Positions 1 to 19,031 of a stretch of DNA of 23,417 nt are shown one piece after another. The DNA is from an uncultured Clostridia bacterium (GTDB lineage Bacteria; Bacillota; Clostridia; Christensenellales; Aristaeellaceae): positions 1-23,417 of the forward strand of contig CALCTW010000134.1 in the NCBI GenBank assembly GCA_937907055.1, given 5' to 3'. Below the pieces are notes generated by a model. The model was not told the origin of the DNA. It worked only from the letters and a program-made list of their open reading frames with translations, and did not search any database. The stretch's first letter is position 1; each line of letters begins with the position of its first letter. Made by a program: the position numbers and the translations under genes.

Positions 1-2
1 TG

Positions 3-320
3 GAGATTATTTGGGAGAAAAGCCCGATTTCAGCAAAAGAAATCAGCTTAATTGCCGCTGAAACAATTGGATGGAATAAAAACACCACTTATACGGTAAT
101 CAAAAAGCTTGAAGCAAAAGGATTTATCAGACGGGAAGATCCGGGTTTTATTTGTACTCCGCTTGTATCTCAAAACCAAATGCAAAAAGTGGAAGCCGCC
201 TCTCTTGTCAAGAAAGTGTTTGGAGGTTCTCGCAAGGCTTTGTTTTCTGCTTTACTTGAGGATGAGCCTTTATCCGAAGAAGAAATCGATGAGCTGCGAA
301 AGCTGATAGATAACAGGTGA
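3..320 (+). CDS. BlaI/MecI/CopY-family winged-helix transcriptional repressor (5' partial, runs off the window)
   Basis: Frame 3 translates as EIIWEKSPISAKEISLIAAETIGWNKNTTYTVIKKLEAKGFIRRED...LSEEEIDELRKLIDNR*, the typical BlaI/CopY wHTH plus C-terminal dimerisation helix. The TGA stop at 318-320 overlaps the GTG start of the next gene (GTGA), and that gene is the cognate M56 peptidase. Confidence 0.85.
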   Translation, partial: EIIWEKSPISAKEISLIAAETIGWNKNTTYTVIKKLEAKGFIRREDPGFICTPLVSQNQMQKVEAASLVKKVFGGSRKALFSALLEDEPLSEEEIDELRKLIDNR

Positions 321-1240
321 GAGTAATGTTGCAGGAAGTTTTCTATTGGATATTCAATATGAGCATAACTGCCGCCTTGACAGGTGTGGTTATTATGCTC
401 GTCAGACTGATAAAGCGGATCCCGAGAAGGATTGCGGTATTTCTTTGGGTAATTCCTTTCCTGCGAATGGCGGTCCCTTTCGGATTGAACAGTCCCTACA
501 GCCTGATGTCGTTATTATCCAGAATCACCACAAAAACGATTGTTGTATACCAACCGACTGAGGACATTGCATTTTCATATATGAACAGTATAATGGCTGC
601 GAATTCATACTTTCCGATCACCTATAAGGTCAATATTTTTGAAGACATATTCAGCGTAGCCTCAGTGATATGGATAATCGTAGCTTTGTCTGTCCTTCTG
701 ATGTTAGTAGTTACTTATCTGACAACGATGTTGGAAATCAAAGATTCCACACATTTTAGAGACAATATTTATCTTTCGGAAAAGGTTGTATCTCCTGCTG
801 TATATGGAATTGTAAACCCCCAAATTATCTTACCGATGTCCTATAAAGACAGAGATATCGACCTTGTTGTTCTTCACGAAAAAACGCATATTCACAGTAT
901 TGATAATTTATGGCGAATGGTTGCGTTTGTGATCACAGCGGTGCATTGGTTTAATCCACTTTGCTGGATTTTCCTAAAATGCTTTCTCACAGATCTTGAA
1001 TTGTCCTGCGATGAGCGTGTCCTTTCAAAATTGGGAACAGACCGGGCAAAGGAATATGCACTGTCATTGTTAGAAAGTAGGCAAGGTACAACTGTATTTG
1101 CTTCTGCTTTCGGTGGAGCAAAAATACGCACAAGAATAGAAAACATACTGTCTTTTAAGAAGATGACGTGGTTCTCGCTCACGGTTTTTATTGCGCTGAT
1201 TGGTGCTATATTCTATGTCTTACTTACAAATGCAGGGTGA
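317..1240 (+). CDS. BlaR1/MecR1-like M56-family membrane zinc metallopeptidase without an extracellular penicillin-binding sensor domain
   Basis: 307 aa with several N-terminal TM helices and an HEKTH (HExxH) motif in LVVLHEKTHIHSIDNLW. It sits immediately downstream of, and is translationally coupled to, the BlaI-family gene. It ends in TGA. Confidence 0.85.
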   Translation: MRVMLQEVFYWIFNMSITAALTGVVIMLVRLIKRIPRRIAVFLWVIPFLRMAVPFGLNSPYSLMSLLSRITTKTIVVYQPTEDIAFSYMNSIMAANSYFPITYKVNIFEDIFSVASVIWIIVALSVLLMLVVTYLTTMLEIKDSTHFRDNIYLSEKVVSPAVYGIVNPQIILPMSYKDRDIDLVVLHEKTHIHSIDNLWRMVAFVITAVHWFNPLCWIFLKCFLTDLELSCDERVLSKLGTDRAKEYALSLLESRQGTTVFASAFGGAKIRTRIENILSFKKMTWFSLTVFIALIGAIFYVLLTNAG

Positions 1241-1253
1241 AAGGAAGCTGGAT

Positions 1254-2234
1254 ATGAAAAATAAATCGTTTAACAGATATTATCTGTTTTCTTGCATTGG
1301 CGTTTTGATCGCCTCTTATTATCCTTTATCAATGGGCATCCGGGTCATTACCGATATGATCACAAGCGGCACGGTTATGAAAGAAAACTATCCGAAATAT
1401 ATCATTCCGTATACCCCGATTTGCCTTGCTGTTATTGCAGCTGTTCTTCTAATGCCGGTGATTATGAAACTCCTTAAACGCTTTGCATTTATCGGAGGTT
1501 CTGTCCTGGCAATAGGAACTTTCTTCGCTCTTGAAACATTGTTTGAGCAGAAGGTTGTTGTAACAACTGCGGAAACTGTCTCAAAACTTGAAGACTGGCA
1601 AATGTTTATGTGCTATATTCCGCCGGAGTCGCTGACGACCACTTATAAAACGCAAACAGCGGTCGATATTCTCATCGGTAACTATAATCCTGCCTTTAAG
1701 ATGCACTTTTATATAATATCCGTAGTACTGATTCTTTCCATACTTAACTGTCTGTATGGTTTTGCTAAGATGATAAAGACTGGTGAAAAGAAGCGCTTAA
1801 AGTCTTTGGTGTTACAATCCGTTTGTTCCCTCTCTTTTCTCGGACTGTGTATTCTTGCCTGTTTTACGGCATTCTGGAGAGACGGAAATATTCAGGTTTC
1901 GCCTTTATCTGCAACGCTGATGACAGTATTCTTTATTCTTTTAGGCGTAACGGTTGGCGTTTTTATCGGTTCGTTCCTTTTGGGGAAGAGCAAATTCGTT
2001 TCTGTTTGGATTCCGTCGATTGCCGCTGCTTTGATGACATTCCTTATGTACATCGGCGAAATGATCCTGCTAAACCGACATTTATATAGTTTTGGCACTG
2101 GATTTATATTTGACAGCATACCCGGAATTGTGTTTGCCCCAATAGATTTACTGGTAATATTGGCAACTGCTTGCATTACAGCTTTGATATTTGGCATTCC
2201 GAATGGTTGCAAGCACATCCAAAAGGAGGAATAG
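1254..2234 (+). CDS. polytopic integral membrane protein of unknown function
   Basis: The ATG at 1254 is preceded by GAAAGGAAG 6 nt upstream (the ORF track starts earlier, at 1200, inside the previous gene). About 326 aa with roughly 8 hydrophobic helices, and the same AT-rich composition as the two upstream genes. It is the only gene in the window that ends in TAG (2232-2234). Confidence 0.7.
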   Translation: MKNKSFNRYYLFSCIGVLIASYYPLSMGIRVITDMITSGTVMKENYPKYIIPYTPICLAVIAAVLLMPVIMKLLKRFAFIGGSVLAIGTFFALETLFEQKVVVTTAETVSKLEDWQMFMCYIPPESLTTTYKTQTAVDILIGNYNPAFKMHFYIISVVLILSILNCLYGFAKMIKTGEKKRLKSLVLQSVCSLSFLGLCILACFTAFWRDGNIQVSPLSATLMTVFFILLGVTVGVFIGSFLLGKSKFVSVWIPSIAAALMTFLMYIGEMILLNRHLYSFGTGFIFDSIPGIVFAPIDLLVILATACITALIFGIPNGCKHIQKEE

Positions 2235-2238
2235 TGTG

Positions 2239-2328
2239 ATGAAGAAGACATTTTTCAATGTTAAACAGCGGTTACGCTGGCACTTTGTTTTATGCTTATA
2301 TTCTCTTTGGGCAGGTGCGCTATGAATA
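2239..2328 (+). CDS. possible small hydrophobic peptide (MKKTFFNVKQRLRWHFVLCLYSLWAGAL)
   Basis: The ATG at 2239 lies 8 nt after a strong AAGGAGG (2223-2229). The frame has 28 sense codons then TGA and lies upstream of the 2372-2421 terminator. There is no other support. Confidence 0.2.
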
Positions 2329-2371
2329 CAAGCTTCCTTTGAACGTGACTAAAGAAGAACTCCATTGTTTT

Positions 2372-2421
2372 GCCCCGCTCGGAATCAAGATTTTTCTCTT
2401 GGCTCCGGACGGGGCTTTTTT
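2372..2421 (+). terminator. rho-independent terminator candidate closing the AT-rich cassette
   Basis: GCCCCG (2372-2377) pairs with CGGGGC (2410-2415), with extra inner pairs (TCGGA/TCCGG), and is followed by TTTTTT (2416-2421). Confidence 0.5.
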
Positions 2422-2432
2422 GCGTTTATGGG

Positions 2433-2897
2433 CTATATTTTCGTAATCGGTATGACCGCCGTCTGTGGGAACCGCTCCTTTGCGGCTTGACGGACGATCC
2501 AGTCGCCTGCGGCGGCGAAGAAGAATCCACCCTTTTTATCGGCGTACACATAGCGGGTAACATCGTAATCGTCTTCACCGAGCGTGTAGTGAATCTCTCC
2601 CCAGTCGTTATTGTGGTCAGCGCAGTATTCATATACGATCTCTGTTTTCGTCTTTTTCGTGCGCCGCAGTTCTACGATGTGGATATATTCGTCAACGGCA
2701 AGATCTACAAGAATTTTGTCGTATGCCTTATGAACGATACGGTAAGCGGTATCCGGCGAAGACAGGGTATGCTGCAAGGCAAGGTCGGCGTATGCTTTTT
2801 TCTACTGGAGCAGCTTTACGGGAGAACCGTTTTCATCTTCTCCCATCTCAAAGATACCGAGACATTCTCTGCAAAAGCCGAGATGGTCGGCAATCAT
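2433..2897 (-). CDS. hypothetical protein whose reading frame contains one in-frame TAG (2804..2802)
   Basis: ATG at 2897, then MIADHLGFCRECLGIFEMGEDENGSPVKLLQ-[TAG]-KKAYADLALQHTLSSPDTAYRIVHKAYDKILVDL...IPITKI. The ORF track reports only the 3' part (2433..2777, TTG start). Both parts are in the same frame. The frame ends at a second TAG (2435..2433). If TAG is sense, the first TGA is at 2387..2385. No family was recognised. Confidence 0.45.
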
Positions 2898-3002
2898 TGA
2901 ACGTTCCCGGATACATAAGAAGAATGTTGATTTCAAAGAAAAATCGAGTATTCATAAGTCAAATCCCTTATGAATACCCGGTATGGATCGGGCGGCAATG
3001 TG

Positions 3003-3058
3003 CTTAACGCCTGCAAATCGGCGGAACGACTACTTAACGCCTGCAAATCGGCGGAACG
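3003..3058. repeat. perfect 26-nt direct repeat, two copies with a 30-nt period
   Basis: CTTAACGCCTGCAAATCGGCGGAACG occurs at 3003-3028 and again at 3033-3058, separated by ACTA. It is intergenic, about 100 nt upstream of the HAD gene promoter. Confidence 0.9.
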
Positions 3059-3157
3059 GAGGGCAGATCGGTTGCCCCGATCCCTTTCGGCGCGGACGGC
3101 GCGAGGGCTGCTGCCGGGAACGCGGGGGAGAAGGGTGTAACACTTTTTCCGCGGTGG

Positions 3158-3186
3158 TTGTGATGCCGGATGAAAAGTGGTATGAT
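3158..3186 (+). promoter_or_regulatory. sigma-70-type promoter candidate for the HAD hydrolase gene
   Basis: TTGTGA (3158-3163), a 17-nt spacer, then an extended -10 TGgTATGAT (3178-3186). The SD AAGGGGAGG (3192-3200) follows. Confidence 0.5.
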
Positions 3187-3209
3187 AGTATAAGGGGAGG
3201 TATGGACTG

Positions 3210-3977
3210 ATGATCAGGCTTGTTTGTTCCGATCTGGACGGCACGCTGCTGGAAAAGGGCGGCGTTCTGCCGGATGGTATTTTTGATGCGGTCCGCGCGC
3301 TGAAAAAGAAGGGCGTTCTGTTCGCGCCGGCTTCCGGCCGTCAGTATGATAACCTGCGCTCCCTGTTCGCGCCGGTGCGGGATGAGATCGCGTACATCTG
3401 CGAAAACGGCACGCTCACCGTGGCGGACGGGCAGAAGATGGGCTGCGGCTTTTTCCCGGAGGAGGTCGCGCGGCAGGTGATCCACGATATCCTGTCGCTG
3501 GATCTGCAGCTGCTGCTTTCCGTGCAGGATGCCTGTCTGGTGCTGGATACCGCGCCCCGCTCCTATACCGATGACATCGTTTACCGCCTGCGCAATACCA
3601 CCCGTGTCATCCATGATCCCATGATCTACGCGGGGGAGGCCATCAAGATCAGCGGCTTTGCCGCCGAAGGGCTGGGGGACCGCGCGCGGATCCTGCAGGA
3701 AAAGTGGCGTCCGGTCATGCATTGCGATGCCGTGGGCCCCTACTGGGTGGATTTTACCTACAACTGCAAGGGGGACGGCATCCGCGCCCTGTGCGATCAT
3801 TACGGCATCGCGCCGGAGGAGATCGCGGCTTTCGGCGACGCGCAGAACGACCGCTCCATGCTGGAGATGGTGGGTCATCCCTTTGTGATGGAAAGCGGCG
3901 ATCTGTCGCTGCTGAATGAGCGCGCCCGCACCAGCAAAACGGTGCTGGGCACTTTGAAGGAGCTGTTTGATCTGTAA
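3210..3977 (+). CDS. Cof-type HAD-IIB family hydrolase / sugar-phosphate phosphatase
   Basis: 255 aa. Motif I is CSDLDGTLL, motif II is APASGR and motif IV is FGDAQNDRSMLE. The length and cap architecture are typical of Cof/YidA-like phosphatases. It ends in TAA. Confidence 0.9.
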   Translation: MIRLVCSDLDGTLLEKGGVLPDGIFDAVRALKKKGVLFAPASGRQYDNLRSLFAPVRDEIAYICENGTLTVADGQKMGCGFFPEEVARQVIHDILSLDLQLLLSVQDACLVLDTAPRSYTDDIVYRLRNTTRVIHDPMIYAGEAIKISGFAAEGLGDRARILQEKWRPVMHCDAVGPYWVDFTYNCKGDGIRALCDHYGIAPEEIAAFGDAQNDRSMLEMVGHPFVMESGDLSLLNERARTSKTVLGTLKELFDL

Positions 3978-4082
3978 GCCCTTATAATACAGAAAAGAAC
4001 AGCGGTCTGTCTTCCGCGCGTTACGCGGCTTACATATTATGATTGATCATCATACGATTATTTTGAAACCGAGGCGAATCTT

Positions 4083-5486
4083 ATGCTCGAATTGAAGGAT
4101 TTTAAAAATTAGAGGATCCACATGATCGGGATTGGCGGCTCCTCCATGAGCGGTCTTTGCGAAATGCTGCTGACGGAGGGCTACACCGTGACCGGCTCGG
4201 ATAACACGCATTCCCACGCGGTGGAACGGCTGGAGGCACGCGGTGTTTCGGTCGTCATCGGCCATAAGGCGGAATCGGTGCACGGGGCCGGGCTGGTCAT
4301 CTACAGCGCCGCCATCGGCGAGGAAAACCCGGAGCGGGCGGAGGCCTTCCGGCTGGGTATTCCGCAGATGGAGCGCGCCGTGCTGCTGGGTCAGCTGATG
4401 CTGGGCCACGAGCATAATATCTGCGTTTCCGGCGCGCACGGCAAGACCACCACCTCCTCCATGATCGCGCAGGCGCTTGTGGAGGCCGGTGTCGATCCCG
4501 CCGTGCACATCGGCGGCCGTCTGGACGCCATCGGCGGCGGCAGCCTTGTGGGCTCCTCCCGCGCTTTTGTGGCGGAGGCCTGTGAGTTCCACGGCTCCTT
4601 CCTGCACATGTTCCCCACCCTCGCGGTCGTGCTGAACATCGATGAGGATCATCTGGATTATTACGGCGATATCGAGCATATCGAGGCTGCCTTCGGCGAT
4701 TTTCTGGCCCTCCTACCGGAGAACGGCATCGCGCTGGGCTGGGGCGAGGATGAGCGGATCACGCGTCTTTTCTCCCGTCTGCAGCAGAAGACCTGCACCT
4801 TTGGCCTTGCCGAAACGAATGATTTCTATCCCGCTTCGCTTTCCCTGTCCGATACCGGCTGCGGCATCTTTGATGTGATGCATGGGGGCGAAAAGCTGGC
4901 GCACATTGCCCTGTCCGTCGGCGGTGATTTTAATGTCATCAACGCGCTGGCGGCCTTTGCCGCGTGCTATCTCATCGGCGTTGAGCCGGATCAGATCGCC
5001 GCTTCCCTGTCCGCCTTCACCGGCGCGCGCCGCCGGGATGAGTTTACCGGCATGATCGACGGCGTGAAGCTGTATCACGATTACGGCCACAATCCGCCCG
5101 AAATGCGCGGCGCTATCCATGTGGCGCGCATGAAGCGTCCCACCCGCCTGTGGGCCGTCATGCAGCCCCATACCTACTCCCGTGTCAAGACTTTGTTTGA
5201 CGGTTATCTCACCTGCACCGCGGAAGCGGATATCACGCTCGTTACCGATATCTACGGCGCGCGCGAGGTGGATCCCGGCGACATCAACACGCCCATGATC
5301 ATCGAGGGCATGCGCGCGCACGGCATCCATGCCGTCCACACCCCCAACTTTGATGATACCGAGGCCTATCTGCGCGCTCACTGGCAGCCGGGCGATCTGG
5401 TGATCACGCTGGGCTGCGGCAATATCAATCTTCTCAATGAACAGATGCAGAAGCACGGTGATACCGTAAAGGAAGCAAAGGCATGA
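4083..5486 (+). CDS. murC: UDP-N-acetylmuramate--L-alanine ligase MurC, with an in-frame TAG at 4110-4112 in the N-terminal extension
   Basis: It has IGIGGSSMSGLCEMLLTEGYTVTGSD (Rossmann N-domain) and the GAHGKTTTSSMIA P-loop, in a Mur-ligase-length protein. The standard-code ORF starts at ATG 4122 (MIGIGG...). The conserved beta-1 strand RIH-M-IGIGG begins right after the TAG. An in-frame ATG at 4083 with an upstream GAGG gives MLELKDFKN-[TAG]-RIHMIGIGG. It ends in TGA, overlapping the next gene's ATG (ATGA). Confidence 0.88.
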
Positions 5487-6856
5487 GCAAGCGCTTTCTA
5501 TGCCTGATTTCCGGGCTTCTGGCCGCTTTGCTGCTTTTCGCGCCGGCGGCGTCCGCGCAGGGGGAATTCTCCTTCTGTCCCGCGTTTTTCGCGTTCGCGG
5601 ATCGCTATGACGCGGGGGAGAGCGTATCGCTCGCCCTGAGCGGCCATGTCAATAAGCTGCTCCCGTTTGAAGCAGAGGAGCTGGCTATCATCAACAGCGC
5701 GCTGGACGGGGCTTCGCTCACGCTCACTGCCGCGCGGGACGCGTCCGGCGCGTTCGCGCTTTCCCGCGGGGGGCTGCCCGTTCTTTCGTTCGCCTACCGG
5801 GATGATCTGGTGGCGGTCAATGATGAAGTATTGCTGCTTGGGCCTGTGGGGCAGGAGCAGCTCATTCCGCGGCAGCAGGCGGACCTGTGGGATTGTCTGA
5901 AGGCCATCCACGCCTCCCTGCCGCACATGGAGCAGGCGGTTTCCCTGCTTGCCCCGGTCAAGGCCGTTTCCGGCACCGTGATCAGCAATATCGGCTCCAT
6001 GCGCGAGGGGCGTGCCTACACGCTTTCCGCGGAGGCCGCGCAGCTTTTCCTGACAGGCATGTCCGCCCTGTTGCCGGAGGCATCGGGGATGGACGCGGTG
6101 AAGGAGGCGATCGCGCTTTGCAGCGCCTCCGGAGAGATCACCCTCACCTTTTATATGGATGCGCATGGGGATACGGTCTGCTGCGAGGGCGCGGGCCCGC
6201 TCCTGATCCGGGAGACGGATCACACCTTCCGCTTCCTGATCGCCATGAACGATACCGGCATCAATTGCTCCTTTACGGCATCCGCTGCTGCAGGAAAGGG
6301 GCTTTACCGCGTGGGCCTCAAGGCCAAGGTCAGCGAGGCCTCCTCCAGTCAGAAGGATCTGTCCGGTTCCGCGGAGTGGACGGTCCGCACGGATGAGGGC
6401 AAATATTCCCTCACTGGCGAAGCGGTGCTCAGCTCCCGCGCCCGCGCGGAGGGTGATACGCTGACCGGCCGTATCACCTGGACAGAGACGGACGGCGGCA
6501 CAGAGCGCGTTTATACGCTCAGGCCGGATCTGCTTTTTTCTGCGGATCAGGGGGCCGGCACGCTGTCCCTCACCCAGAAGAAGGGGGATACCACGCTCTT
6601 CAGCATGGATCTGAATGCTGTGCTGACGATGTCGCAGCCCGTGCTGCAGGACGCGCAGACGCCGAACCGCGTGGACGCGTACGCTTCCGAACGTATCGAG
6701 GACGCGCTGCTCAAGGCCTTCGCGGGGCAGATGGCCGCGCTGGATCAGCAGGATATGTATCTGCTCACCCACGCGCTCCGATCGGACGCGTGGATGGAGT
6801 CTACCACCGATCTGCAGAAGGTCTATTCCATTTTTGATTTCCAGGTGGAGGAATGA
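5483..6856 (+). CDS. secreted protein of unknown function (member 1 of a four-gene paralogous cluster)
   Basis: 457 aa with signal peptide MSKRFLCLISGLLAALLLFAPAASAQ. The start overlaps the murC stop. It ends in TGA. No family was recognised. Confidence 0.7.
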   Translation: MSKRFLCLISGLLAALLLFAPAASAQGEFSFCPAFFAFADRYDAGESVSLALSGHVNKLLPFEAEELAIINSALDGASLTLTAARDASGAFALSRGGLPVLSFAYRDDLVAVNDEVLLLGPVGQEQLIPRQQADLWDCLKAIHASLPHMEQAVSLLAPVKAVSGTVISNIGSMREGRAYTLSAEAAQLFLTGMSALLPEASGMDAVKEAIALCSASGEITLTFYMDAHGDTVCCEGAGPLLIRETDHTFRFLIAMNDTGINCSFTASAAAGKGLYRVGLKAKVSEASSSQKDLSGSAEWTVRTDEGKYSLTGEAVLSSRARAEGDTLTGRITWTETDGGTERVYTLRPDLLFSADQGAGTLSLTQKKGDTTLFSMDLNAVLTMSQPVLQDAQTPNRVDAYASERIEDALLKAFAGQMAALDQQDMYLLTHALRSDAWMESTTDLQKVYSIFDFQVEE

Positions 6857-6899
6857 TCACCCGGATTCCCGGGCTGTTGCCCGGAGAAGAGGAGGTCCT

Positions 6900-8294
6900 G
6901 TGAAAAAAGCATTCACGATCCTGCTTTGTATTTTGCTGCTCCTTCCGCTCAGCGCGGGGGCGAATGTCTATTCCCCGGTCGATTACACGATGGACCGCAA
7001 GCTCATCAGTCAGATCCGCACCGGCGGTTATGAGGGCACGGTCACGGTCGGCACACGGGGGGAAAGCATGGGCTATCCCTTTGATACCCTGTTTGCCCTG
7101 CTCCGTCCGCTGGATCAGGCTGTCATCACGTTTAACGGAACCGGAGAAAAAAATGTGGGCAACCACAATGATGTGCTGCTGACGGCAGCCCGCGGCGGTG
7201 AGGCCCTGACGGATCTGCGGCTGCAGACTTCACCGGAGCTGTGGGCGTTTTCGTCCGATACACTGCTTAAGGGACAGTTTTTCGCGTTCGATCCTTCGGC
7301 CTTCCTGACGATGTTTCTGGAACTGAATGAGATCCCCGCGGAGCTGCGCGCGTTTTTTACCGCGCGGGGCAGCGTTTTTCCGGCAGCGCTTTCCGAGTAT
7401 GAGGAGGAACTGGGGTTCTTCCTGGCGGAGTATTGCACCGTCGGCATCGAGGACGGCTGTTCCGTGCTGACGTACCGGGTGCCGGCAAAGGCGCTGATCA
7501 ACGAATGCGCGGATCTGCTTTCCCGCGTGCTCAGCAGGCCTGCCGCCCGTGCCGCGCTCTGTTCCTATCTGGAAGGGACGGGGCTGGAGGCCTTGATGAC
7601 AGCGGAAAACGCTGCCCTGCTGCCGGCTGCCGTGCGCATGCTGAAACTGAGCGGCGATCTTGTTCTCATCCGCCGTTTTGACGCCCGCGCGATGGAAATT
7701 GAGACGGAGGCGGAACTGCCGATGCCGACGGAGGGCGCGGTCTCCCGTGTCCTGATCCGGATCCGTCCGGGCGAAACCGGCACGATGCTGGATGTCACGG
7801 CAGAGTATCCGGAGGGGGATCTTGTGCGCTTCTCCTGTCTGCAGGAGCAGAACACCTGCACCGGCGTTTTCGCCGTCCGTTCCGCTGCCCGCGCGCTGGA
7901 TGAGGCCTTTGATTACAGCCTCACCCTCACCGAAAAGAACGTGAATTATGACCGCGTGGAGGATAAGGTGTCGCAGCGCTTCGGCTTCCTCCTCACACTC
8001 ACTCCGATGGAGGGCAGCCTTTCGCACAGCTTTACGGCGGAAGGACAGGTCACCCTGACCAGTCAGAAGAAAGAAGATAAGCCTACCTTCGCGGCCGGTA
8101 CCTGTGTGCTGGAGGATGAGACTACCGGCAGCGCGGTCACCTTTGACCTGAACGGAAAAACAAAGGCTGCCGCTGTGCCGGAGTTTATTGACGCGGCCGC
8201 GGTCACCCGCGCGGATCAGCTGCCGACGGAAGCGCTCCGCCAATGGCTGCAGGAGATCCTGGAGGCTTATGAGGCGGCGGTCCCTCAATTGTAA
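6900..8294 (+). CDS. secreted protein of unknown function (member 2 of the cluster)
   Basis: The GTG at 6900 is preceded by GAGGAGG (6887-6893). The signal peptide is VKKAFTILLCILLLLPLSAGA. The ORF-track start at 6834 is a TTG inside the previous gene. It ends in TAA. Confidence 0.7.
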   Translation: MKKAFTILLCILLLLPLSAGANVYSPVDYTMDRKLISQIRTGGYEGTVTVGTRGESMGYPFDTLFALLRPLDQAVITFNGTGEKNVGNHNDVLLTAARGGEALTDLRLQTSPELWAFSSDTLLKGQFFAFDPSAFLTMFLELNEIPAELRAFFTARGSVFPAALSEYEEELGFFLAEYCTVGIEDGCSVLTYRVPAKALINECADLLSRVLSRPAARAALCSYLEGTGLEALMTAENAALLPAAVRMLKLSGDLVLIRRFDARAMEIETEAELPMPTEGAVSRVLIRIRPGETGTMLDVTAEYPEGDLVRFSCLQEQNTCTGVFAVRSAARALDEAFDYSLTLTEKNVNYDRVEDKVSQRFGFLLTLTPMEGSLSHSFTAEGQVTLTSQKKEDKPTFAAGTCVLEDETTGSAVTFDLNGKTKAAAVPEFIDAAAVTRADQLPTEALRQWLQEILEAYEAAVPQL

Positions 8295-8310
8295 ATGTTA
8301 TCCCCTTTGC

Positions 8311-8339
8311 TTGACTTGTTTTCTGGTCTTATCTATAAT
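8311..8339 (+). promoter_or_regulatory. sigma-70 promoter for the 8379 gene
   Basis: TTGACT (8311-8316), a 17-nt spacer, then TATAAT (8334-8339). GGAGGT lies 8 nt before the ATG. The whole element is duplicated at 9950-9978. Confidence 0.7.
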
Positions 8340-8378
8340 ATATTTATTCCCTATACAGGAAAATGGAGGTAATCTGCA

Positions 8379-9854
8379 ATGATGAAAAAGATGCTTGCCC
8401 TTCTTATCAGCCTCATGATGCTGTTCAGCGTCTGCGGTGTGGCGGAAGGCGCGCTTGTGTGTGACAGCAATGTCAATGTCAACACGGAGGAACTGCTGAA
8501 CTTTGTTCGCGCCGTCAGCGGCACCGTGGACGCGGAGATCGAAGAGGAAGCGGTCACGATCCTGAACCTGCTTGCCAATGTGGTCAACAAGGTCCATACG
8601 CATGCCGTGATCAGTGAAAACGGCTGCGCCGGCACCCTGGCGCTGGGCGACAGCGATCTGGGCAGCGTGTATGCCGACTGGTCTGACGGTGTGAAGCTGT
8701 ATACCGATCTGCTGCCCTCCTACGCGGTGAACATCACGGCGGAGGAACTGCAGCCCTATGTTGAAATGGTCCAGCAGGCTGTTTCCCAGCTGCTCGGTGT
8801 CCTGATGACGATCGATACCGAAGCCTACGCGCAGCCCATCCGGGATCTGGCGCAGAAGTTCCTGGACAGCCAGGTGACGGAGAAGGTCACCTTCACCTTT
8901 GGCGATACCACCTATACCGATAAGGCCACCTACACCTTCACCTACGGCATGCTGGTGGACGCGGCCAACGAGATCGGCGCGCTGCTGAAGGCCGATGCCG
9001 AAAAGCTGGGCATGGGCGAGCTTTTCGATTTCGAAGCCAAAGTGACCGTCAGCGAAGCGGTTAAGCTGGACATTGAAGTGTACGCCAACGCCGGGAAGGA
9101 CATGCTGATCCTTGTCAAGAACGGGGATTACACCGGCATCGTTGTGACATGCAAGTATACCGAGACCGGTATGGATTGGGAATTCGCGATCGGTATCGAT
9201 GATTACACCCAGATCACCGGCAGCCTCTCTGTCGGCGATGGGCAGTTCACCTTCAATTGCGCGAATGATACGGTGGGCAGCTACGTGGAACAGCATAACG
9301 CGGTCAGCTTCACGCTGGTCACCGATCCCGTTCCGCTTCTGACCTACGCCGTGCATAAGGATTCCACTTCATATGGCTGGAATACCGGGCGGGATATCTA
9401 CTATACGCTCCTGCAGACAAGTGAAAACACCGTCTCTGTCATGATGGAGATGGCGATGAAGGAAGCCTACGGCGAAGAATCTGTGAATGTAACGATCCGC
9501 GAGCAGGCGGATGTGACCGTCACCGAGGATGGCCTGGAGGAGACCATGGTGCTGTATCTGGGCGACAGCGATGTGCCTGCCGTGACCGGCAACTACACCA
9601 TGACCATGACGAGTGAACCGGTCATCTTCCCCGAGCTGGACTGGGAGAACATGACGGTCGTCTCTCTGGAGGACATCCTGAACGCTTCCGAGGCCGGCTC
9701 CGATGAGATCGAAGCCGTGGAGAACGGTCTTCTCATGGATCTGATGGGATATACCGCGCCGCGTGTCATGATGGCTTTCCAGACGGAACTGCCCGATGAA
9801 TACGCGCAGATCATGAGCCTGATCGCGATGATCGTCGACGGCACACTCAACTGA
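8379..9854 (+). CDS. secreted protein of unknown function (member 3, tandem paralogue of the 10018 gene)
   Basis: 491 aa with signal peptide MMKKMLALLISLMMLFSVCGVAEG. It is clearly alignable by eye to the next gene (for example LYTDLLPSYAVNITAEEL against LSTDLLPSYGLHITAEDL). It ends in TGA. Confidence 0.8.
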   Translation: MMKKMLALLISLMMLFSVCGVAEGALVCDSNVNVNTEELLNFVRAVSGTVDAEIEEEAVTILNLLANVVNKVHTHAVISENGCAGTLALGDSDLGSVYADWSDGVKLYTDLLPSYAVNITAEELQPYVEMVQQAVSQLLGVLMTIDTEAYAQPIRDLAQKFLDSQVTEKVTFTFGDTTYTDKATYTFTYGMLVDAANEIGALLKADAEKLGMGELFDFEAKVTVSEAVKLDIEVYANAGKDMLILVKNGDYTGIVVTCKYTETGMDWEFAIGIDDYTQITGSLSVGDGQFTFNCANDTVGSYVEQHNAVSFTLVTDPVPLLTYAVHKDSTSYGWNTGRDIYYTLLQTSENTVSVMMEMAMKEAYGEESVNVTIREQADVTVTEDGLEETMVLYLGDSDVPAVTGNYTMTMTSEPVIFPELDWENMTVVSLEDILNASEAGSDEIEAVENGLLMDLMGYTAPRVMMAFQTELPDEYAQIMSLIAMIVDGTLN

Positions 9855-9863
9855 CCGATTTAC

Positions 9864-9887
9864 GCCCGGCTTTGGCCGGGCTTTTTT
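9864..9887 (+). terminator. rho-independent terminator
   Basis: GCCCGGC-TTTG-GCCGGGC followed by TTTTTT, 10 nt after the stop codon. Confidence 0.85.
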
Positions 9888-9949
9888 GATGCCGTTTTTT
9901 CGGCTCCCGGAGCGGCAGTCCCTCAATTGTAAACGTTATCCGCCTTTGC

Positions 9950-9978
9950 TTGACTTGCTTTCCGGCATTGCCTATAAT
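9950..9978 (+). promoter_or_regulatory. sigma-70 promoter for the 10018 gene (duplicate of 8311-8339)
   Basis: TTGACT (9950-9955), a 17-nt spacer, then TATAAT (9973-9978), followed by a conserved 5'UTR and GGAGGT. Confidence 0.7.
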
Positions 9979-10017
9979 GATTTTATTCCCTTTACAGGAA
10001 AACGGAGGTATATTGCA

Positions 10018-11535
10018 ATGATGAAAAAGATGCTCGCGCTGCTCCTTGGCTGTGTGATGCTGCTTGGCGTCTGCGGCGCGGCCGAGGATACGCTCAGCTG
10101 CAGGATGGAATATCAGTTCAACGCGGATGAGTTCAACGCGCTGCTGACCGGTATCGGCGGAGAGATCCCGGAAGAGGTTCAGCCCGTGATCGATCTGATG
10201 CTCAAGGTGCTGAATAAACTCTCCTTCAGCGGCATGATAAATGAAAAGGGCGCCAAGGGCGAGATCGCGCTGGGCGGTTCCGTGCTGGGCAATCTGTATA
10301 TCAACTGGGAGGACGGCATCCGGCTCAGCACCGATCTGCTTCCCTCCTACGGCCTTCACATTACCGCCGAGGACCTGGCGCCCGTGACCGATGTGCTGGC
10401 CAAACTGGCGCAGCTGGATCCGGCGGCCTATGTTGCGCCGTTCTATGACATGATCGCCGCGGTGGAAGCGACGGTGGTCACCGAGGCGGCCGAGACCGTG
10501 ATCGGCGATGTCACCTACACGGAAAAGACCACCTATACCTTCACAGAGAAGATGCTGGGCGATATGGTGAACGGCGTGCTTTCGCTGATCCGCGCGGATG
10601 CCGAAAAGCTCGGTCTGGGCGATATGATCGGCGCGGATGTCGTGAGCGAAGCCGATGAAGACAACAAAGCGTTTATCGTGATCTACAGCAACGACACGAA
10701 GAAACTGATCACGCTGGAGAATGACGCGGGCGCCGCCGCCTTTGTGATCACGCTCACCGAGGGTGAGAACGGCATGAACGGCACGGTCGTTGTCGGTGTC
10801 AATCCCGTTGTGAACGGCACCTTCATCCTGCGTGAAAATGGTTTCTCCTGCGCGGTCACAGCGGACGAAGTAGCCGGGGACTGGTTCGAGTCCCATTCGG
10901 TGCTTGAATGTGAGTTTACGCGGGATGAGAACGGCTTCTCCCTTGTGATAAAAGAGAGCGAATCGTTCAATGAGTGGACAGAATCCCACATGACGCTGGA
11001 ATGCGCCCTGCAGACCGCGCCTGTCTCCGTGTTCTCCTACGCGCTGCGCAGCGAGTCCGCGAGCGCCAACTGGAAGCAGATCAGCGAAATGAAGAACAGC
11101 TGGACGCTGACGGATGAAAACACCATCTCCTATCTGTCTGATATTTCTGTGCTGGAAGGCTATGACGGACGGGAAATGAGCATGGCCATGAAGGGCACGG
11201 GTGAAATGGTGCTTCTGGAGGACGGCATGGATATGACGAGCGCGGTGTACGTCAACGGCAGCGAGACCCCTCTCTGCGCAGCCACCGGCGCGCTGCGCTT
11301 CACGGACGAGGGGATCGATTTCCCTGCCTTCGATGAGGGCAAAACAGTCCTGACGATTGCGGAACTGAGCCGCCTCAGCGATAACGCGAATGCAGACGAA
11401 GCACAGACGCTGCTGCAGGGCATGATGAGCGAACTGATGGGCAACGGTATCGTCAATGTGATGACGGCTTTCCGGACAATGCCCGAAGAATACGAGCAGA
11501 TCATGGACTTCGCGGTACCTTCGCGGTACAGATGA
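10018..11535 (+). CDS. secreted protein of unknown function (member 4, tandem paralogue of the 8379 gene)
   Basis: The ATG at 10018 follows GGAGGT. The signal peptide is MMKKMLALLLGCVMLLGVCGAAED. The ORF-track start at 9886 lies upstream of the promoter and terminator and is not credible. It ends in TGA. Confidence 0.8.
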   Translation: MMKKMLALLLGCVMLLGVCGAAEDTLSCRMEYQFNADEFNALLTGIGGEIPEEVQPVIDLMLKVLNKLSFSGMINEKGAKGEIALGGSVLGNLYINWEDGIRLSTDLLPSYGLHITAEDLAPVTDVLAKLAQLDPAAYVAPFYDMIAAVEATVVTEAAETVIGDVTYTEKTTYTFTEKMLGDMVNGVLSLIRADAEKLGLGDMIGADVVSEADEDNKAFIVIYSNDTKKLITLENDAGAAAFVITLTEGENGMNGTVVVGVNPVVNGTFILRENGFSCAVTADEVAGDWFESHSVLECEFTRDENGFSLVIKESESFNEWTESHMTLECALQTAPVSVFSYALRSESASANWKQISEMKNSWTLTDENTISYLSDISVLEGYDGREMSMAMKGTGEMVLLEDGMDMTSAVYVNGSETPLCAATGALRFTDEGIDFPAFDEGKTVLTIAELSRLSDNANADEAQTLLQGMMSELMGNGIVNVMTAFRTMPEEYEQIMDFAVPSRYR

Positions 11536-11573
11536 TGACGAACGGGATGGAATAAGCCTGTTCTGATCGGCAG

Positions 11574-11606
11574 CGGGCCCGGCAAAAGCCGGGCCCGTTC
11601 TTTTTT
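11574..11606 (+). terminator. rho-independent terminator
   Basis: CGGGCCCGGC-AAAA-GCCGGGCCCG (10-bp stem) followed by TTCTTTTTT. Confidence 0.85.
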
Positions 11607-11666
11607 GCTTTTATGGTTGTCTGATGGCTCCGATCCGGCCGGACGATCAAATTTTCAGCGGCTCGG

Positions 11667-11695
11667 TTGCAATTTGGCCCCTGCTGTGCTATACT
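11667..11695 (+). promoter_or_regulatory. sigma-70 promoter for the tautomerase-family gene
   Basis: TTGCAA (11667-11672), a 17-nt spacer, then TATACT (11690-11695). The AGGAGG SD follows at about 11718. Confidence 0.6.
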
Positions 11696-11732
11696 GTGCC
11701 CGTTCCCTGAACGGACAGGAGGTCTTTTGTCT

Positions 11733-12077
11733 ATGCCTTACATCGCGGCTCGCGTATCCTGCGGCATTTCTCCCGAACAGGAAAAGGCGCTGAAGGAGGA
11801 GATGGGTCAGCTCATCTCTCTGCTCCCCGGCAAGTCGGAGCAGTGGCTGATGTGTGATTTCACACCCGATTGTCATCTCTATTTCCAGGGCAAAAATGAT
11901 CAGAAGATCGCTTTTGTCTCCGTTCGTGTATACGGAAAATCCGAGGGGAAATACTACGAAGCGTTAACGGAAGGGCTGACAGCACTTCTGGAACGCGAGC
12001 TTTCCATTCCTGCCCGCAACATCTACGTTCAATACGAAGAGTGTTCTGTCTGGGGCTGGAACGGTCATAATTTCTGA
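11733..12077 (+). CDS. MIF / phenylpyruvate-tautomerase-family protein (tautomerase superfamily)
   Basis: The ATG at 11733 lies after GGACAGGAGG. The 114-aa protein begins MPYI (catalytic Pro-1 after Met removal) and ends ...VWGWNGHNF, like the MIF C-terminus. It ends in TGA. Confidence 0.7.
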   Translation: MPYIAARVSCGISPEQEKALKEEMGQLISLLPGKSEQWLMCDFTPDCHLYFQGKNDQKIAFVSVRVYGKSEGKYYEALTEGLTALLERELSIPARNIYVQYEECSVWGWNGHNF

Positions 12078-12080
12078 TGT

Positions 12081-12116
12081 AAAGGTGTTTGCGCTGCGGC
12101 GCAAATGCCTTTTTCT
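12081..12116 (+). terminator. rho-independent terminator
   Basis: TTTGCGC-TGCG-GCGCAAA (12088-12105) followed by TGCCTTTTT. Confidence 0.7.
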
Positions 12117-12198
12117 TCCTTTATTGGTATTTTGTTGATCGGCATCCCGGCAGCAACGGCTGCCGTACAGCCTTTCTTACCGCAGAGAACAGGTGATT

Positions 12199-12906
12199 AT
12201 GCAGAAAGTACTCATCATCGGCGCCTCCCGGGGCATCGGCGCGGCATGTGTGCGCCGGTTCGCGCGGGCAGGCGCGCAGGTCGCGTTCACCTACGCCGCT
12301 TCCGAAGAGAAGGCGCTCGCGCTTTCGGCGGAGACCGGCGCTCCGGCAATCCGCTGCGACGCGGCGGACGCGGCGGCCATGCAGGCGCTGCCGGGGCAGC
12401 TGCCCTTTGTGCCGGATACGCTCATCTACGCGGCGGGGATCGCGAAAACATCCCTCATTCAGGATGTGTCCGTCGCCGAATGGGAGCATCTTTTCGCGGT
12501 CAATGTGACCGGTGCCTTCCTGATGGCCCGCGCGTTCCTGCCGGCGCTCATCAGCATGAAGAAGGGCAGCATCACCTTTATCACCTCCATGTGGGGGGAA
12601 GTGGGCGCTTCCTGTGAGGCGGCCTACAGCGCCACAAAAGGCGCGCTCATCGCGTTTGCCAAGGCCCTTGCCAAGGAAGAAGGGCCCAGCGGCATCCGTG
12701 TCAACTGTGTTTCGCCCGGGGTCATCGACACCGATATGATGGCCTGCTATTCCGCGGAGGATAAGGCGTCCCTCGCGGAGGAAACGCCGCTCGGCCGTCT
12801 TGGCACGCCCGACGAGGTGGCGGACACAGTCTATTATCTTTCGAGTGAGGAAGCACGCTTTGTCTCCGGCGCGGTTGTCCGGGTGAACGGCGGCTTTATC
12901 ACATAA
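12199..12906 (+). CDS. short-chain dehydrogenase/reductase (FabG-like SDR oxidoreductase)
   Basis: It has VLIIGASRGIGAA (TGxxxGxG-type NAD(P) motif), the catalytic YSATKGAL (YxxxK) and PGVIDTDM. The ATG at 12199 is preferred over the GTG at 12193. It ends in TAA. Confidence 0.88.
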   Translation: MQKVLIIGASRGIGAACVRRFARAGAQVAFTYAASEEKALALSAETGAPAIRCDAADAAAMQALPGQLPFVPDTLIYAAGIAKTSLIQDVSVAEWEHLFAVNVTGAFLMARAFLPALISMKKGSITFITSMWGEVGASCEAAYSATKGALIAFAKALAKEEGPSGIRVNCVSPGVIDTDMMACYSAEDKASLAEETPLGRLGTPDEVADTVYYLSSEEARFVSGAVVRVNGGFIT

Positions 12907-12958
12907 ATGTCTCTATAACACCTCATTATGATTTGCATGAGTTGGGAGGAACAGAACA

Positions 12959-14173: not shown

Positions 14174-14182
14174 TACAGCGCT

Positions 14183-14674
14183 ATGATGGAAGAAGAAAAA
14201 CAGATCGTGCCGGTGGAGACCGCGCCCGAAAAACCAAAGACCAACATCATTTCCTCCGCGAAGCATTTTATCGGCACCGCGCTCTCTCCCCTGAAATCCA
14301 AGGACAGCATCGCGCAGATCGAGGAATTCACCAGCGAGATGACATTGGTGGCCGAAGGGCTTTCGGAGGATCAGCTGCGGATCTCCCGTCTGCTGGATAA
14401 TGTGGCGGCGGAGCAGACCACCTTTGAAAAGGATACCGAGGATCATTTCCGGCTCGTCCGGGATGAGCTGGAGGAACAGGAAAAGGCGCTGAAGGGGCAG
14501 CAGGACGCGCTCAAGGCCGTCAATGCCCGTCTGGATAAGCTGGATAAGGCGCTTGCCGATAAGAAGCTCCGGAAGGTGGACGGCTGGACAGGCCTTGTCC
14601 GCGCGCTCACATGGCTGGTCGGGATCGCGGCCGGCTCCGGCATCATCATCACATTGCTCAATAAACTGCTCTGA
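14183..14674 (+). CDS. coiled-coil protein with a C-terminal transmembrane anchor, unknown function
   Basis: 163 aa. The central region is heptad-like and charged (EDHFRLVRDELEEQEKALKGQQDALKAVNARLDKLDKALADKKL). The C-terminal TM segment is LVRALTWLVGIAAGSGIIITLL. It ends in TGA. Confidence 0.6.
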   Translation: MMEEEKQIVPVETAPEKPKTNIISSAKHFIGTALSPLKSKDSIAQIEEFTSEMTLVAEGLSEDQLRISRLLDNVAAEQTTFEKDTEDHFRLVRDELEEQEKALKGQQDALKAVNARLDKLDKALADKKLRKVDGWTGLVRALTWLVGIAAGSGIIITLLNKLL

Positions 14675-14680
14675 TTTCTT

Positions 14681-14716
14681 CCGCGCGGGGGTCTTTGGCC
14701 TTCGCGCGGTTTTTGT
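14681..14716 (+). terminator. rho-independent terminator candidate
   Basis: CCGCGCG (14681-14687) pairs with CGCGCGG (14703-14709) and is followed by TTTTTGTTT. Confidence 0.6.
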
Positions 14717-14827
14717 TTACAAAGATCCTGGGGGATCCCGCGCGGATCCGGGAATGAAAAAAGGATTCCGCGCGCCGATGTGGAATAGGATAATATTAAC
14801 GTTTCTTTCTGCTATACAGGAGTGAGT

Positions 14828-15382: not shown

Positions 15383-15385
15383 ATC

Positions 15386-16951: not shown

Positions 16952-17443
16952 TTATTTGACCGTACCGCAATTCTTGCAGGTCGCCTTGCTGACGGGGTTC
17001 TCGGTGCCGCACGTGGGGCATTTCCACGTCGCGATGGGGGCAGGTGCGTGTTCGGGCTTGGACTTTTCGCCGTTTCTCGCCTTTCCGGTCAGACGGTCAG
17101 CGCCGCACTTGGAGCAGGTGATCCGAGAAACGGGGTTGTTGGTCTGACAGTTGGAGCAGGTCCAGTTCCGGTCCCGGAACATGGAGAAGGAACCGGAATT
17201 CTCAGATTCCTTGTCCGCGCAGGTGCCGATGGCGTAGATCACATTCGCGCTCAGCCAACTGAAGGCTGAACCTAAAAGCAACGTGATGATGCCGAGGAAA
17301 ATGAAAGGATGCTCATAACCCTAATTCCGGACATACACTTCGATCCCGAACAGGGAGATCGCGCCCCAGATAGTCGCAACGACACCGCTGATGCACCAGA
17401 TGTAAGCGAAGATCTTGCTCATCTTTCCACATAATTTGAACAT
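16952..17443 (-). CDS. two-TM membrane protein with two C-terminal RanBP2-type zinc fingers; the frame contains one in-frame TAG (17323..17321)
   Basis: A strong SD (AAGGAGG) lies 7 nt before the ATG at 17443. The product reads MFKLCGKMSKIFAYIWCISGVVATIWGAISLFGIEVYVRN-[TAG]-GYEHPFIFLGIITLLLGSAFSWLSANVIYAIG...WTCSNCQTNNPVSRITCSKCG...WKCPTCGTENPVSKATCKNCG. The ORF track shows only 16952..17281, which starts at a TTG inside TM2 with no SD. It ends in TAA. Confidence 0.7.
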
Positions 17444-17520
17444 AATGTTCCCTCCTTGGATATGTTATAGATTATTTAGAGACCGGGTCGTCGAAACGAC
17501 CGGAGCAGTCTTACAGAAGA

Positions 17521-18048
17521 TCAGTTCTGAGATGAAAACGCGGATTTAAAAGTTCCGCATTTCTTACAGATCCCATCACTGTCTGAGTTCTCCGTTCCGC
17601 AGGTGAGGCATCTCCACATTCCCGGGGACGCGGGTTGGGACACATCTATCTTTTCCGGGATGATGGTCTGAGGATCTGTCGGCGCGGACTCATCCTGCTT
17701 TTTCGAGACGACCGTATCCGGTGTGACAGGTGCGGTCACCGTGGTGGGCGCGGTCGTTGCGGCGGATGCCTGAGTGGAGGACGCTTCACTCAGTTTGATC
17801 AGGAAAAAGGCAATCCCAATGATGCCGCCGATGACGGACAAGCCGCCGAATACGCGATTCAGGTTCTCGTTGAGCAACACAACATTGTTGGCGGTATAAC
17901 GGGTGGCCCTGTAGATGTATGTGTAGGCATCGCCGCCGAAAGAAGTATAGTCGGCGGTCGATCCGGTGGGCTGACTGAGGGTGTTGATGCCGAAGATAAT
18001 GAGCGCGATGCAGGCCGCGATGCCCAGAACGGAAGCAAACTTTTTCAT
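17521..18048 (-). CDS. two-TM membrane protein with a Thr/Ala/Pro-rich linker and one C-terminal RanBP2-type zinc finger
   Basis: 175 aa with TM segments near the N-terminus and at GGLSVIGGIIGIAFFLI. The C-terminal WRCLTCGTENSDSDGICKKCG matches W-x-C-x2-C-x3-N-x6-C-x2-C. It ends in TGA. Confidence 0.75.
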   Translation of the reverse strand: MKKFASVLGIAACIALIIFGINTLSQPTGSTADYTSFGGDAYTYIYRATRYTANNVVLLNENLNRVFGGLSVIGGIIGIAFFLIKLSEASSTQASAATTAPTTVTAPVTPDTVVSKKQDESAPTDPQTIIPEKIDVSQPASPGMWRCLTCGTENSDSDGICKKCGTFKSAFSSQN

Positions 18049-18286
18049 AGGAATCTCTCTTTATTAATTGATGATCAATATTGTAGCATCGGGACAGTCT
18101 TTTGTCAATTTTGCAGTCTGATTCTTAAACGAAAACGAAAGCATTTTGAACGCAAGATAAATCAGATCGATACTTTTATGATATTTCTTCTTAATACCCC
18201 CTCGTCTATAATGTGCACTGTCAGGAGGATGAAAGACCTCCTGAGGAAAGAAGATAAAACGCCTGATAAGGCGGGAGGTAATGGAT

Positions 18287-18835
18287 ATGAAAAAGATCTC
18301 TGTTCTGATGGTTGCCCTGATTCTGGCCATTCTCGCGATCGTTCCTGTGATGTCCGCGCATGCTGAAAACGCGAACATCGCCTCATATACGATGTATGTT
18401 TCTTCTTCCAACGGCAAGGGCGTGCGTATGCGCTCCGGTGCCTCTACGGATTCCGATGTTCTCTTCAATCTGGGCGAAGGCCGCCCGGTTACTGTTACAG
18501 GTGCGTTTGGTGACTGGTCCATTGTCCGTGTCAGTGTGAACGGCAAGAGCTATAACGGCTACATTATGAGCCAGTTCCTTTCAAGCACCGATCCTTCCAC
18601 CCTTCCGCAGACCTTTAAGCCTGTAAGCCGCTTCGCGATCCGTGTTCGCGCGGCTTCCGCGGATGGTGTGGTCTCCATGTGGAAAACGACCAACAAGCAG
18701 GTTGCAAATAAAATGCGCGATCTGACCCGTACGGAAACCCTTACGGTGATCCAGGAAAGCCGCGCTTGGTATCTTGCTGAAGATATGTACGGCAATGTCG
18801 GCTATGTCGCCAAGGCCTACGTTACAGCCTGCTGA
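18287..18835 (+). CDS. secreted protein with two bacterial SH3 (SH3b) domains
   Basis: The ATG at 18287 lies 8 nt after GGGAGG (the ORF track starts two codons earlier, at 18281). The signal peptide is MKKISVLMVALILAILAIVPVMSAHA. SH3_3-like segments are present (VRMRSGASTDSDVLFNLGEGRPVTVTGAFGDWSIVRV...GYIMSQFL, and a second copy ending GYVAKAYV). It ends in TGA. Confidence 0.75.
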   Translation: MKKISVLMVALILAILAIVPVMSAHAENANIASYTMYVSSSNGKGVRMRSGASTDSDVLFNLGEGRPVTVTGAFGDWSIVRVSVNGKSYNGYIMSQFLSSTDPSTLPQTFKPVSRFAIRVRAASADGVVSMWKTTNKQVANKMRDLTRTETLTVIQESRAWYLAEDMYGNVGYVAKAYVTAC

Positions 18836-18927
18836 TTCCTCTCTCTTTCTTCTTTTTCCTTACCCGGTAACGTGAAGGACGCACTCAAGATGGATTCCTT
18901 GCCATCGCGTCCGGGCGCGTTACCCGG

Positions 18928-18963: not shown

Positions 18964-18975
18964 TGTACAGGCATA

Positions 18976-19007: not shown

Positions 19008-19031
19008 TGAATGTTATTTACAAGCTGTGAT

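Follow-up and report, generated by a model that had tools for sequence, protein, structure and literature searches.

The murC gene of an uncultured Clostridia bacterium carries an in-frame TAG at codon 10 of its ancestral reading frame. On balance, we lean to the view that this TAG arose by a genuine nonsense mutation of Gln10 (CAG to TAG), private to the strain, and that it is tolerated through initiation or reinitiation of translation at the in-frame ATG at position 4122. The case works like an early nonsense mutation followed by a translational restart, and would be a new instance of that known class. We take it for an oddity of one strain; a new genetic code is not indicated. All positions refer to the window, that is, the whole 23,417-nt stretch of DNA analyzed (contig CALCTW010000134.1).

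The TAG is codon 10 and the ATG at 4122 is codon 14, with 9 nt between the two (Table 1). In the window, ATG 4083-4085 is followed by CTC GAA TTG AAG GAT TTT AAA AAT and then by the TAG, and positions 4083 to 4109 now form a 9-codon mini-ORF closed by this stop. After the TAG come AGG ATC CAC, the second ATG, and ATC GGG ATT GGC GGC. The translation of 4083-5486 reads MLELKDFKN, a stop, and then RIHMIGIGGSSMSG... to the end of the gene. An earlier interpretation, made from the letters of this DNA alone (the sequence-only reading), had described the same bases (ATG 4083, TAG 4110-4112, AGG-ATC-CAC, and ATG 4122), and re-reading the sequence confirmed them. The GAGG that it had noted before ATG 4083 was found as well, and there is indeed no start codon from the TAG to ATG 4122, since only AGG ATC CAC lies there. 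A second GAGG, which the sequence-only reading did not mention, overlaps both the TAG and the AGG arginine codon.

Table 1. Features at the 5' end of murC in the window
Feature	Position	Strand	Remark
Shine-Dalgarno core GAGG of ancestral (full-length) murC	4071..4074	+	8 nt before ATG 4083; identical in conspecific L001, L002 and L085
Ancestral murC start codon ATG	4083..4085	+	start of P0001 and P0122 (99% identical, 467 aa)
MLELKDFKN, nine codons	4083..4109	+	what is left of the conserved N-terminal extension; helix at 4-7 in model
In-frame TAG	4110..4112	+	CAG (Gln10) in 3/3 conspecific assemblies; private C-to-T transition
Internal GAGG (in AGAGGA 4111-4116)	4112..4115	+	candidate restart Shine-Dalgarno, 6 nt before ATG 4122
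AGG ATC CAC (R-I-H)	4113..4121	+	first three beta-1 residues; contains no start codon
ATG, Met14 of full-length MurC	4122..4124	+	proposed (re)initiation codon
murC ORF, standard code, 454 aa	4122..5486	+	three Mur ligase domains, no frameshift

The gene passed every test for a MurC but one: read with the standard code, its beta-1 is incomplete. The standard-code ORF matched the three Pfam Mur ligase domains (N-terminal, middle, and C-terminal) in order: PF01225 (2.5e-21), PF08245 (9.8e-25), and PF02875 (2.1e-11). The match of the N-domain opened at position 4 of the 95 positions of the Mur_ligase profile; thus, the first three profile positions are missing from this ORF. The top PDB matches were all MurC, with a full-length alignment to 9ir5 at E = 5e-103. 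Like the canonical enzymes (PDB 9ir5, 6cau, 1gqq, 2f00, and 1j6u), the protein has three Mur-ligase domains, the GIGG loop, and the GKTT P-loop, and its gene lies in conserved synteny. Unlike them, the standard-code ORF is missing residues 1-13, among them the start of beta-1, which are present in every MurC compared. The complete first Rossmann strand, x-I-H-[FM]-[IV]-G-I-G-G, is therefore not contained in one uninterrupted ORF, which opens at M14.

The surroundings of the gene are those of its relatives. In the window, in the conspecific assemblies L001 and L085, and in the sister species L086 alike, a HAD hydrolase gene comes first, then murC, then genes for secreted proteins, and the murC stop overlaps the start of the next gene (ATGA 5483-5486), as it does in the relatives. 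A promoter scan upstream of murC gave no plus-strand sigma-70-like match. Compared with its ortholog in L001, murC aligned without gaps and yielded a dS of 0.090, a dN of 0.0066, and a dN/dS of 0.073; by these values, it is not a decaying pseudogene.

We evaluated the N terminus of MurC in the relatives. The nearest database protein, P0001, begins MLELKDFKNQRIHMIGIGG, and P0122, from a second conspecific, has the same length. Relatives at 66-78% identity all follow the pattern M-x-x-[IL]-x-D-[FY]-x-x-[QKR]-R-[IV]-H-M-[IV]-G-I-G-G. When the DNA upstream of the MurC match was translated for 80 species-representative genomes, all 80 proved to encode an unbroken stretch of some 3-15 additional residues before [HYF]-[FMLI]-[IV]-G-[IV]-G-G. 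Across about 200 relatives, every protein had an extension of 3-15 residues ending in x-[IV]-[HY] before [MF]-IGIGG, none of them interrupted, and none of the nearest 120 MurC homologs was interrupted under the standard code. The residue aligned with the TAG is Gln (CAG) in the conspecific strains and Q, K, R, V, T, H, or G in the relatives. Met14 is invariant in a 49-sequence alignment of the closest relatives, and a more distant clade has Phe in its place. Judged by these alignments, 4083-4121 is genuine homologous murC coding sequence and not a chance ORF.

Two database proteins, P0086 and P0099, are annotated as starting at MIGIGG and were considered as native short forms. They were rejected, as their DNA encodes TTG-NINDFIGRRVH-M and ATG-ATPHIRDFRTQRVH-M, respectively. 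Their starts are thus choices of the gene caller, and MurC models of the form "MIGIGG..." are either mis-called starts of this kind or truncations. The shortest natural MurC N terminus that we saw was TTG-I-Y-M-VGIGG in the locus L049, with three residues before the Met. For Thermotoga MurC, we take the N terminus to be MKIHFVGIGG, in agreement with 1j6u.

An AlphaFold2 model of P0001 had a mean pLDDT of 91.5, and of about 91 over residues 1-10. It contains a short helix at residues 4-7 and places beta-1 at residues 11-15, RIHMI. A product starting at M14 would, according to this model, lose three of the five beta-1 residues (R11-I12-H13). Residues 1-9 are probably dispensable for folding, given that residue 2 of the PDB construct 6x9f aligns to query residue 10. 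The sequence-only reading had taken RIHMIGIGG to be the conserved strand and had expected a protein starting MIGIGG to be without most of beta-1. Both points are borne out, as RIH is kept in all relatives and is ordered in the model. Also in line with that reading, no relative was found that truly starts at MIGIGG, and in none of those compared was 4083-4121 replaced by unrelated sequence.

The TAG itself is a private base change. Three conspecific assemblies from three different samples (L001, L002, and L085) share about 97% nucleotide identity with the window across 3122-15405, and over 4066-4132 they are identical to it base for base, except for CAG in place of TAG. T at 4110 occurs in the window alone, and the three conspecific lineages are roughly equidistant, with 32-37 differences in the 1,404-nt gene. 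All 11 orthologous genes aligned to L001 without a single gap, and the TAG was the sole in-frame stop in their 3,739 codons. When changes were polarized over four genes with the three conspecific lineages, those private to the window comprised 51 synonymous changes, 20 nonsynonymous changes, and 1 stop, as compared with 40 and 17 (synonymous and nonsynonymous) in one sister lineage and 34 and 11 in another. The commonest class of private change was the GC-to-AT transition. The gapless genes and a substitution pattern like that of the sister lineages indicate that the contig behaves like genuinely evolved sequence and not like error-laden sequence.

The main rival to a restart is that the TAG is an assembly error or a minority allele: the majority base would be C, and the T at 4110 would stem from faulty sequencing or assembly, from damaged DNA, or from a harmful variant of low frequency that the assembler chanced to choose. 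In its favor, a cluster look-up has the TAG allele on record for one contig of one assembly (23,709 bp, NCBI/ENA), whereas the three conspecific assemblies have CAG; C-to-T is the typical deamination error; and no independent sample with the TAG was found. A look-up of the exact TAG-allele product returned no contig, and two pattern scans of JGI metagenomes found neither the TAG nor the CAG allele. Against it, there is no frameshift and no other stop in the 11 genes, and the private changes are about 70% synonymous, like those of the sister lineages. Moreover, 72 private substitutions in about 4.9 kb would be far above typical consensus error rates, as we infer them. We regard an artefact or minority allele as unlikely, though it is the alternative to be taken most seriously.

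The location of the stop also bears on this question. An in-frame start led by a Shine-Dalgarno sequence within the first 30 codons was found in only 2 of the 11 genes, murC (codon 14) and a MIF-like gene (codon 24). Only 36 of the 3,739 codons (about 1%) lie upstream of such a restart, and the one nonsense codon falls among these. A random error would strike this zone about 1 time in 100. The position of the nonsense codon therefore fits selection that spares such mutations only where a restart exists, and is unlikely for random error or neutral recoding.

The site has the sequence features of a restart at ATG 4122: an early stop, an in-frame start shortly downstream, proper Shine-Dalgarno spacing, and accessible RNA. 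The genes of the window typically carry GGAGG, GAGG, or AGGA 4-10 nt before their starts, and the GAGG at 4112-4115 lies at 6 nt. It owes its existence to the codon used for Arg11, AGG in place of the favored CGC; arginine codons in the window number 150 CGC versus 25 AGG. Use of AGG for Arg11 is limited to this species and its sister L086. The restart region is accessible, as the predicted fold of 101 nt (4060-4160) was no better than that of shuffled sequences (z = +1.0), and no stable structure follows the TAG.

We propose that ribosomes starting from ATG 4083 would make a 9-residue peptide and terminate at 4110-4112. The terminating ribosomes, or fresh 30S subunits, could then initiate at ATG 4122, guided by the GAGG that overlaps the stop. 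The predicted product is a near full-length MurC, minus residues 1-13. A small fraction of full-length protein might still arise through tRNA-Gln reading UAG, which is plausible in trace amounts since tRNA-Gln is near-cognate to UAG. We infer both the initiation at 4122 and a sufficient activity of the shortened enzyme. This enzyme may be impaired, with a cost in fitness, because it loses R-I-H of beta-1 and because an N terminus so short is found in none of about 200 relatives. Two other ways around the stop were considered and rejected. A frameshift or hop that bypasses the TAG would leave the murC frame, and a non-AUG start between the TAG and the ATG would have to use the ATC, which would sit at zero spacing from the GAGG.

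Rescue of early nonsense codons by downstream restarts has long been established for T4 rIIB and lacI. The murC site resembles these classical cases (T4 rIIB and E. coli lacI amber mutations) in that the stop lies in the first codons, an in-frame AUG follows a few nucleotides downstream, and the expected product is N-terminally shortened but otherwise complete. It also resembles coupled gene junctions that work by termination and reinitiation, in which a Shine-Dalgarno core at normal spacing overlaps the stop. Unlike the T4 rIIB and lacI laboratory mutants, the murC allele occurs naturally, affects an essential gene of cell-wall synthesis, and comes from a metagenome-assembled genome of uncultured rumen or gut Clostridia, and its restart is predicted from sequence. 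Another difference is that the restart would here remove part of a conserved beta-strand. A review on reinitiation (PMC5972666), which deals mainly with eukaryotes and viruses, offered no usable passages on restarts after nonsense codons in prokaryotes.

Read-through of the TAG was the claim of the sequence-only reading, which held that murC needs it for a normal N terminus. One part of this claim stands, namely that the TAG interrupts a conserved N terminus. The need for read-through and its occurrence are unsupported: the TAG is a private one-base change and the sole in-frame stop, TAG serves as a terminator, and an ATG led by a Shine-Dalgarno sequence lies downstream. If read-through were the main route, UAG would be decoded by near-cognate tRNA-Gln or by a dedicated amber suppressor (a tRNA-CUA, or pyrrolysine) encoded elsewhere in the genome. 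We consider this improbable, and less likely than an artefact; within it, dedicated recoding accounts for the smaller part. Basal read-through is normally well below 1%.

Several observations are nevertheless in keeping with read-through. The TAG aligns with Gln, the residue inserted both by near-cognate decoding and by code-15 suppressors, and both RIH and the N-terminal segment before it are kept by all relatives and are ordered in the structural model. Few genes in the clade end in TAG (about 3 per 100 called genes, versus 20-24% in a neighboring clade of similar GC). Low-level read-through of UAG in Salmonella pseudogenes has been seen by proteomics (PMC9122581). These are outweighed by the rest of the record. 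The 3,739 orthologous codons include a single in-frame TAG, the window has no interrupted gene besides murC, and the nearest 120 MurC homologs are uninterrupted. The window contains about 170 CAG codons, so a neutral change of CAG to TAG would strike this particular one about 1 time in 170.

TAG is, moreover, a working stop in this lineage. The gene at 1254..2234 of the window ends ...NGCKHIQKEE-TAG at the point where its close homologs end (...RHTQAEE, ...KHAQKEE, and ...RHTQKEE), and in L087, a relative whose MurC is 72% identical, both hisB (IGPD) and prmA end in TAG. The conserved C terminus of the former and the TAG ends of the latter two are what identify TAG as a functional terminator. 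ORFs called with the standard code were also compared with those obtained when TAG, TGA, or TAA is read as sense, and only murC gained a credible extension. Two apparent extensions on the minus strand with TAG as sense, 18064-19017 and 22707-23417, were rejected for containing multiple TAGs and translating into sequence that is not protein-like. Genome-wide recoding of TAG was rejected likewise, as no other credible gene was merged or extended and a single TAG occurs in 3,739 codons.

The machinery for decoding UAG was searched for as well. No tRNA was found in the window, and in 20 related loci no tRNA bears the anticodon CUA. No Rfam family matched the window, and no pylT, pylS, or pylBCD gene and no gene of the methylamine methyltransferase type was found in it. 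The TAG position in murC is variable among relatives and does not lie in a methylamine methyltransferase-type gene. No relative has the TAG, which excludes a conserved signal for programmed read-through. The evidence says that TAG is not recoded here.

Two known systems illustrate the difference. Genomes of gut bacteriophages that use code 15 have many in-frame TAGs over many genes, usually have a tRNA-CUA, and avoid TAG as a terminator (PMC9523058; bioRxiv 10.1101/2021.08.26.457843). The murC site shares with them an in-frame TAG at a Gln position and a gut-type habitat. Unlike them, it stands alone among about 3,700 to 6,700 codons, on a cellular chromosome in which TAG terminates genes, and no suppressor tRNA was seen in the window or the related loci. 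The site is also like the "pseudo-pseudogenes" of Salmonella, in which read-through affects UAG more often than the other stops: the gene is intact apart from one in-frame UAG, and a little full-length protein is possible (PMC9122581). Whereas those genes are dispensable and expressed at low levels, an essential enzyme would need more, and the downstream start would be the more productive route. A lone in-frame TAG in a metagenome-assembled genome gives no basis for recoding without genome-wide support.

A further reading, that this murC has recently become a pseudogene and that another copy in the genome supplies the function, is very improbable. For it, a stop at codon 10 formally disrupts the gene, and the analysis covered one contig of the genome. 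A genome collection was searched for the species in order to look for a second murC; the best match was 69% identical, so the species was not recovered there. Against it, the gene keeps its syntenic position with the conspecifics and the sister species, has no further lesions, a dN/dS of 0.073, and an ATGA overlap with the next gene, and murC is normally single-copy.

If the allele is real and restart is how it survives, it provides a natural example of an essential peptidoglycan gene that withstands an amber codon at position 10. It would indicate that early nonsense mutations can be buffered by a fortuitous internal Shine-Dalgarno sequence together with a Met codon, and would serve as a test of how much of the first Rossmann strand of MurC is dispensable.

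A minor lead of its own is the scarcity of TAG terminators throughout the clade. Among called genes, TAG was the stop in 1 of 21 in the window, 0 of 17 in L001, 0 of 20 in L086, 0 of 8 in L003, 2 of 24 in L087, and 0 of 20 in L088, or about 3%. In a crude ORF census, TAG comprised about 2-5% of the terminators in the close clade, as opposed to about 20-24% in the neighboring clade with the same GC. TAG/CTA was under-represented (observed/expected, 0.25), and CTAG occurred 0 times versus 337 expected. TAG is the rarest stop in E. coli too, and the scarcity in this clade resembles that of ordinary TAG-poor genomes and not a reassignment. It was rejected as proof of reassignment, since TAG works as a stop in the window and in L087. 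With its few TAG terminators, this lineage of rumen or gut Clostridia may have inefficient termination at UAG or may encode an amber suppressor (a chromosomal or prophage tRNA-CUA for Gln, or Pyl), a state of incipient amber-codon capture to which we give only the slimmest of chances. Were it true, changes of CAG to TAG would be tolerated even in essential genes, and the murC allele would be a first glimpse of this in a free-living bacterium.

TAG is very rare as a terminator in this clade, closing about 3 of 100 called genes across the window, a conspecific contig (L001), a sister-species contig (L086) and three contigs of relatives (L003, L087 and L088). None of the approximately 37 native genes of the species that were seen ends in TAG. 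A crude census of a neighbouring clade of equal GC content gave about 20-24% TAG terminators. The CTAG tetranucleotide was observed 0 times in 45 kb, as opposed to the 337 occurrences expected.

The sole TAG-terminated gene of the window is housed in a low-GC island at positions 1-3000, where GC content is 37-47% compared with about 58-62% in the remaining window. Synteny with the conspecific contigs L001 and L085 ends at this island, and both of them carry an aldo-keto reductase and other genes there. Many assemblies contain homologues of the multi-pass membrane protein encoded in the island, at 90-96% identity; more distant homologues (about 74-78%) carry the names of Lachnospiraceae or Tyzzerella MAGs. 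The island is probably an element gained horizontally.

In two relatives, MurC is annotated with a start at MIGIGG (P0086, 449 aa, and P0099, 450 aa). DNA for the conserved N-terminal MurC extension is present in both, beginning from a TTG in the first (contig L003, 2953-3003) and from an upstream ATG in the second (contig L004, 1035-1093). Read against this DNA, both annotated starts are mis-called and could mislead comparisons of MurC N-termini.

In the window, the TGA stop of murC and the ATG start of the following gene share bases in the sequence ATGA (5483-5486), an arrangement typical of translational coupling that is kept in all three conspecific contigs (L001, L002 and L085). The following gene is the first of four in a row immediately 3' of murC (5483-11535), whose products of 457-505 aa all have an N-terminal signal peptide and no Pfam match. 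Genes 3 and 4 are paralogous, at 32% identity, and their 5' leaders (tacaggaaaa[t/c]ggaggta...) are almost the same. For gene 3, dN/dS relative to a conspecific strain was elevated, at 0.55.

The start of the MIF/tautomerase-like gene (11667-12077) is ambiguous: TTG 11667 opens the longest ORF, ATG 11733 is the counterpart of the conspecific gene call, and codon 24, counted from ATG 11733, is another in-frame ATG preceded by an SD sequence. Its dS relative to L001 was unusually high, 0.29 versus 0.04-0.10 for neighbouring genes. Farther along, three small genes (16952-18835) are flanked by the gene for an Ig-domain protein and by sua5/tsaC.

Coordinates of the low-GC island and of genes in the window
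Feature	Position	Strand	Location
BlaR1-type M56 peptidase gene	317..1240		inside low-GC island
Multi-pass membrane protein gene	1254..2234		inside low-GC island
Island right boundary	about 2985-3120		
Signal-peptide protein gene 1	5483..6856		
Signal-peptide protein gene 2	6900..8294		
Signal-peptide protein gene 3	8379..9854		
Signal-peptide protein gene 4	10018..11535		
109-aa protein, two RanBP-type zinc ribbons	16952..17281	minus	
175-aa membrane protein, C-terminal zinc ribbon	17521..18048	minus	
184-aa secreted protein, bacterial SH3 domains	18281..18835	plus
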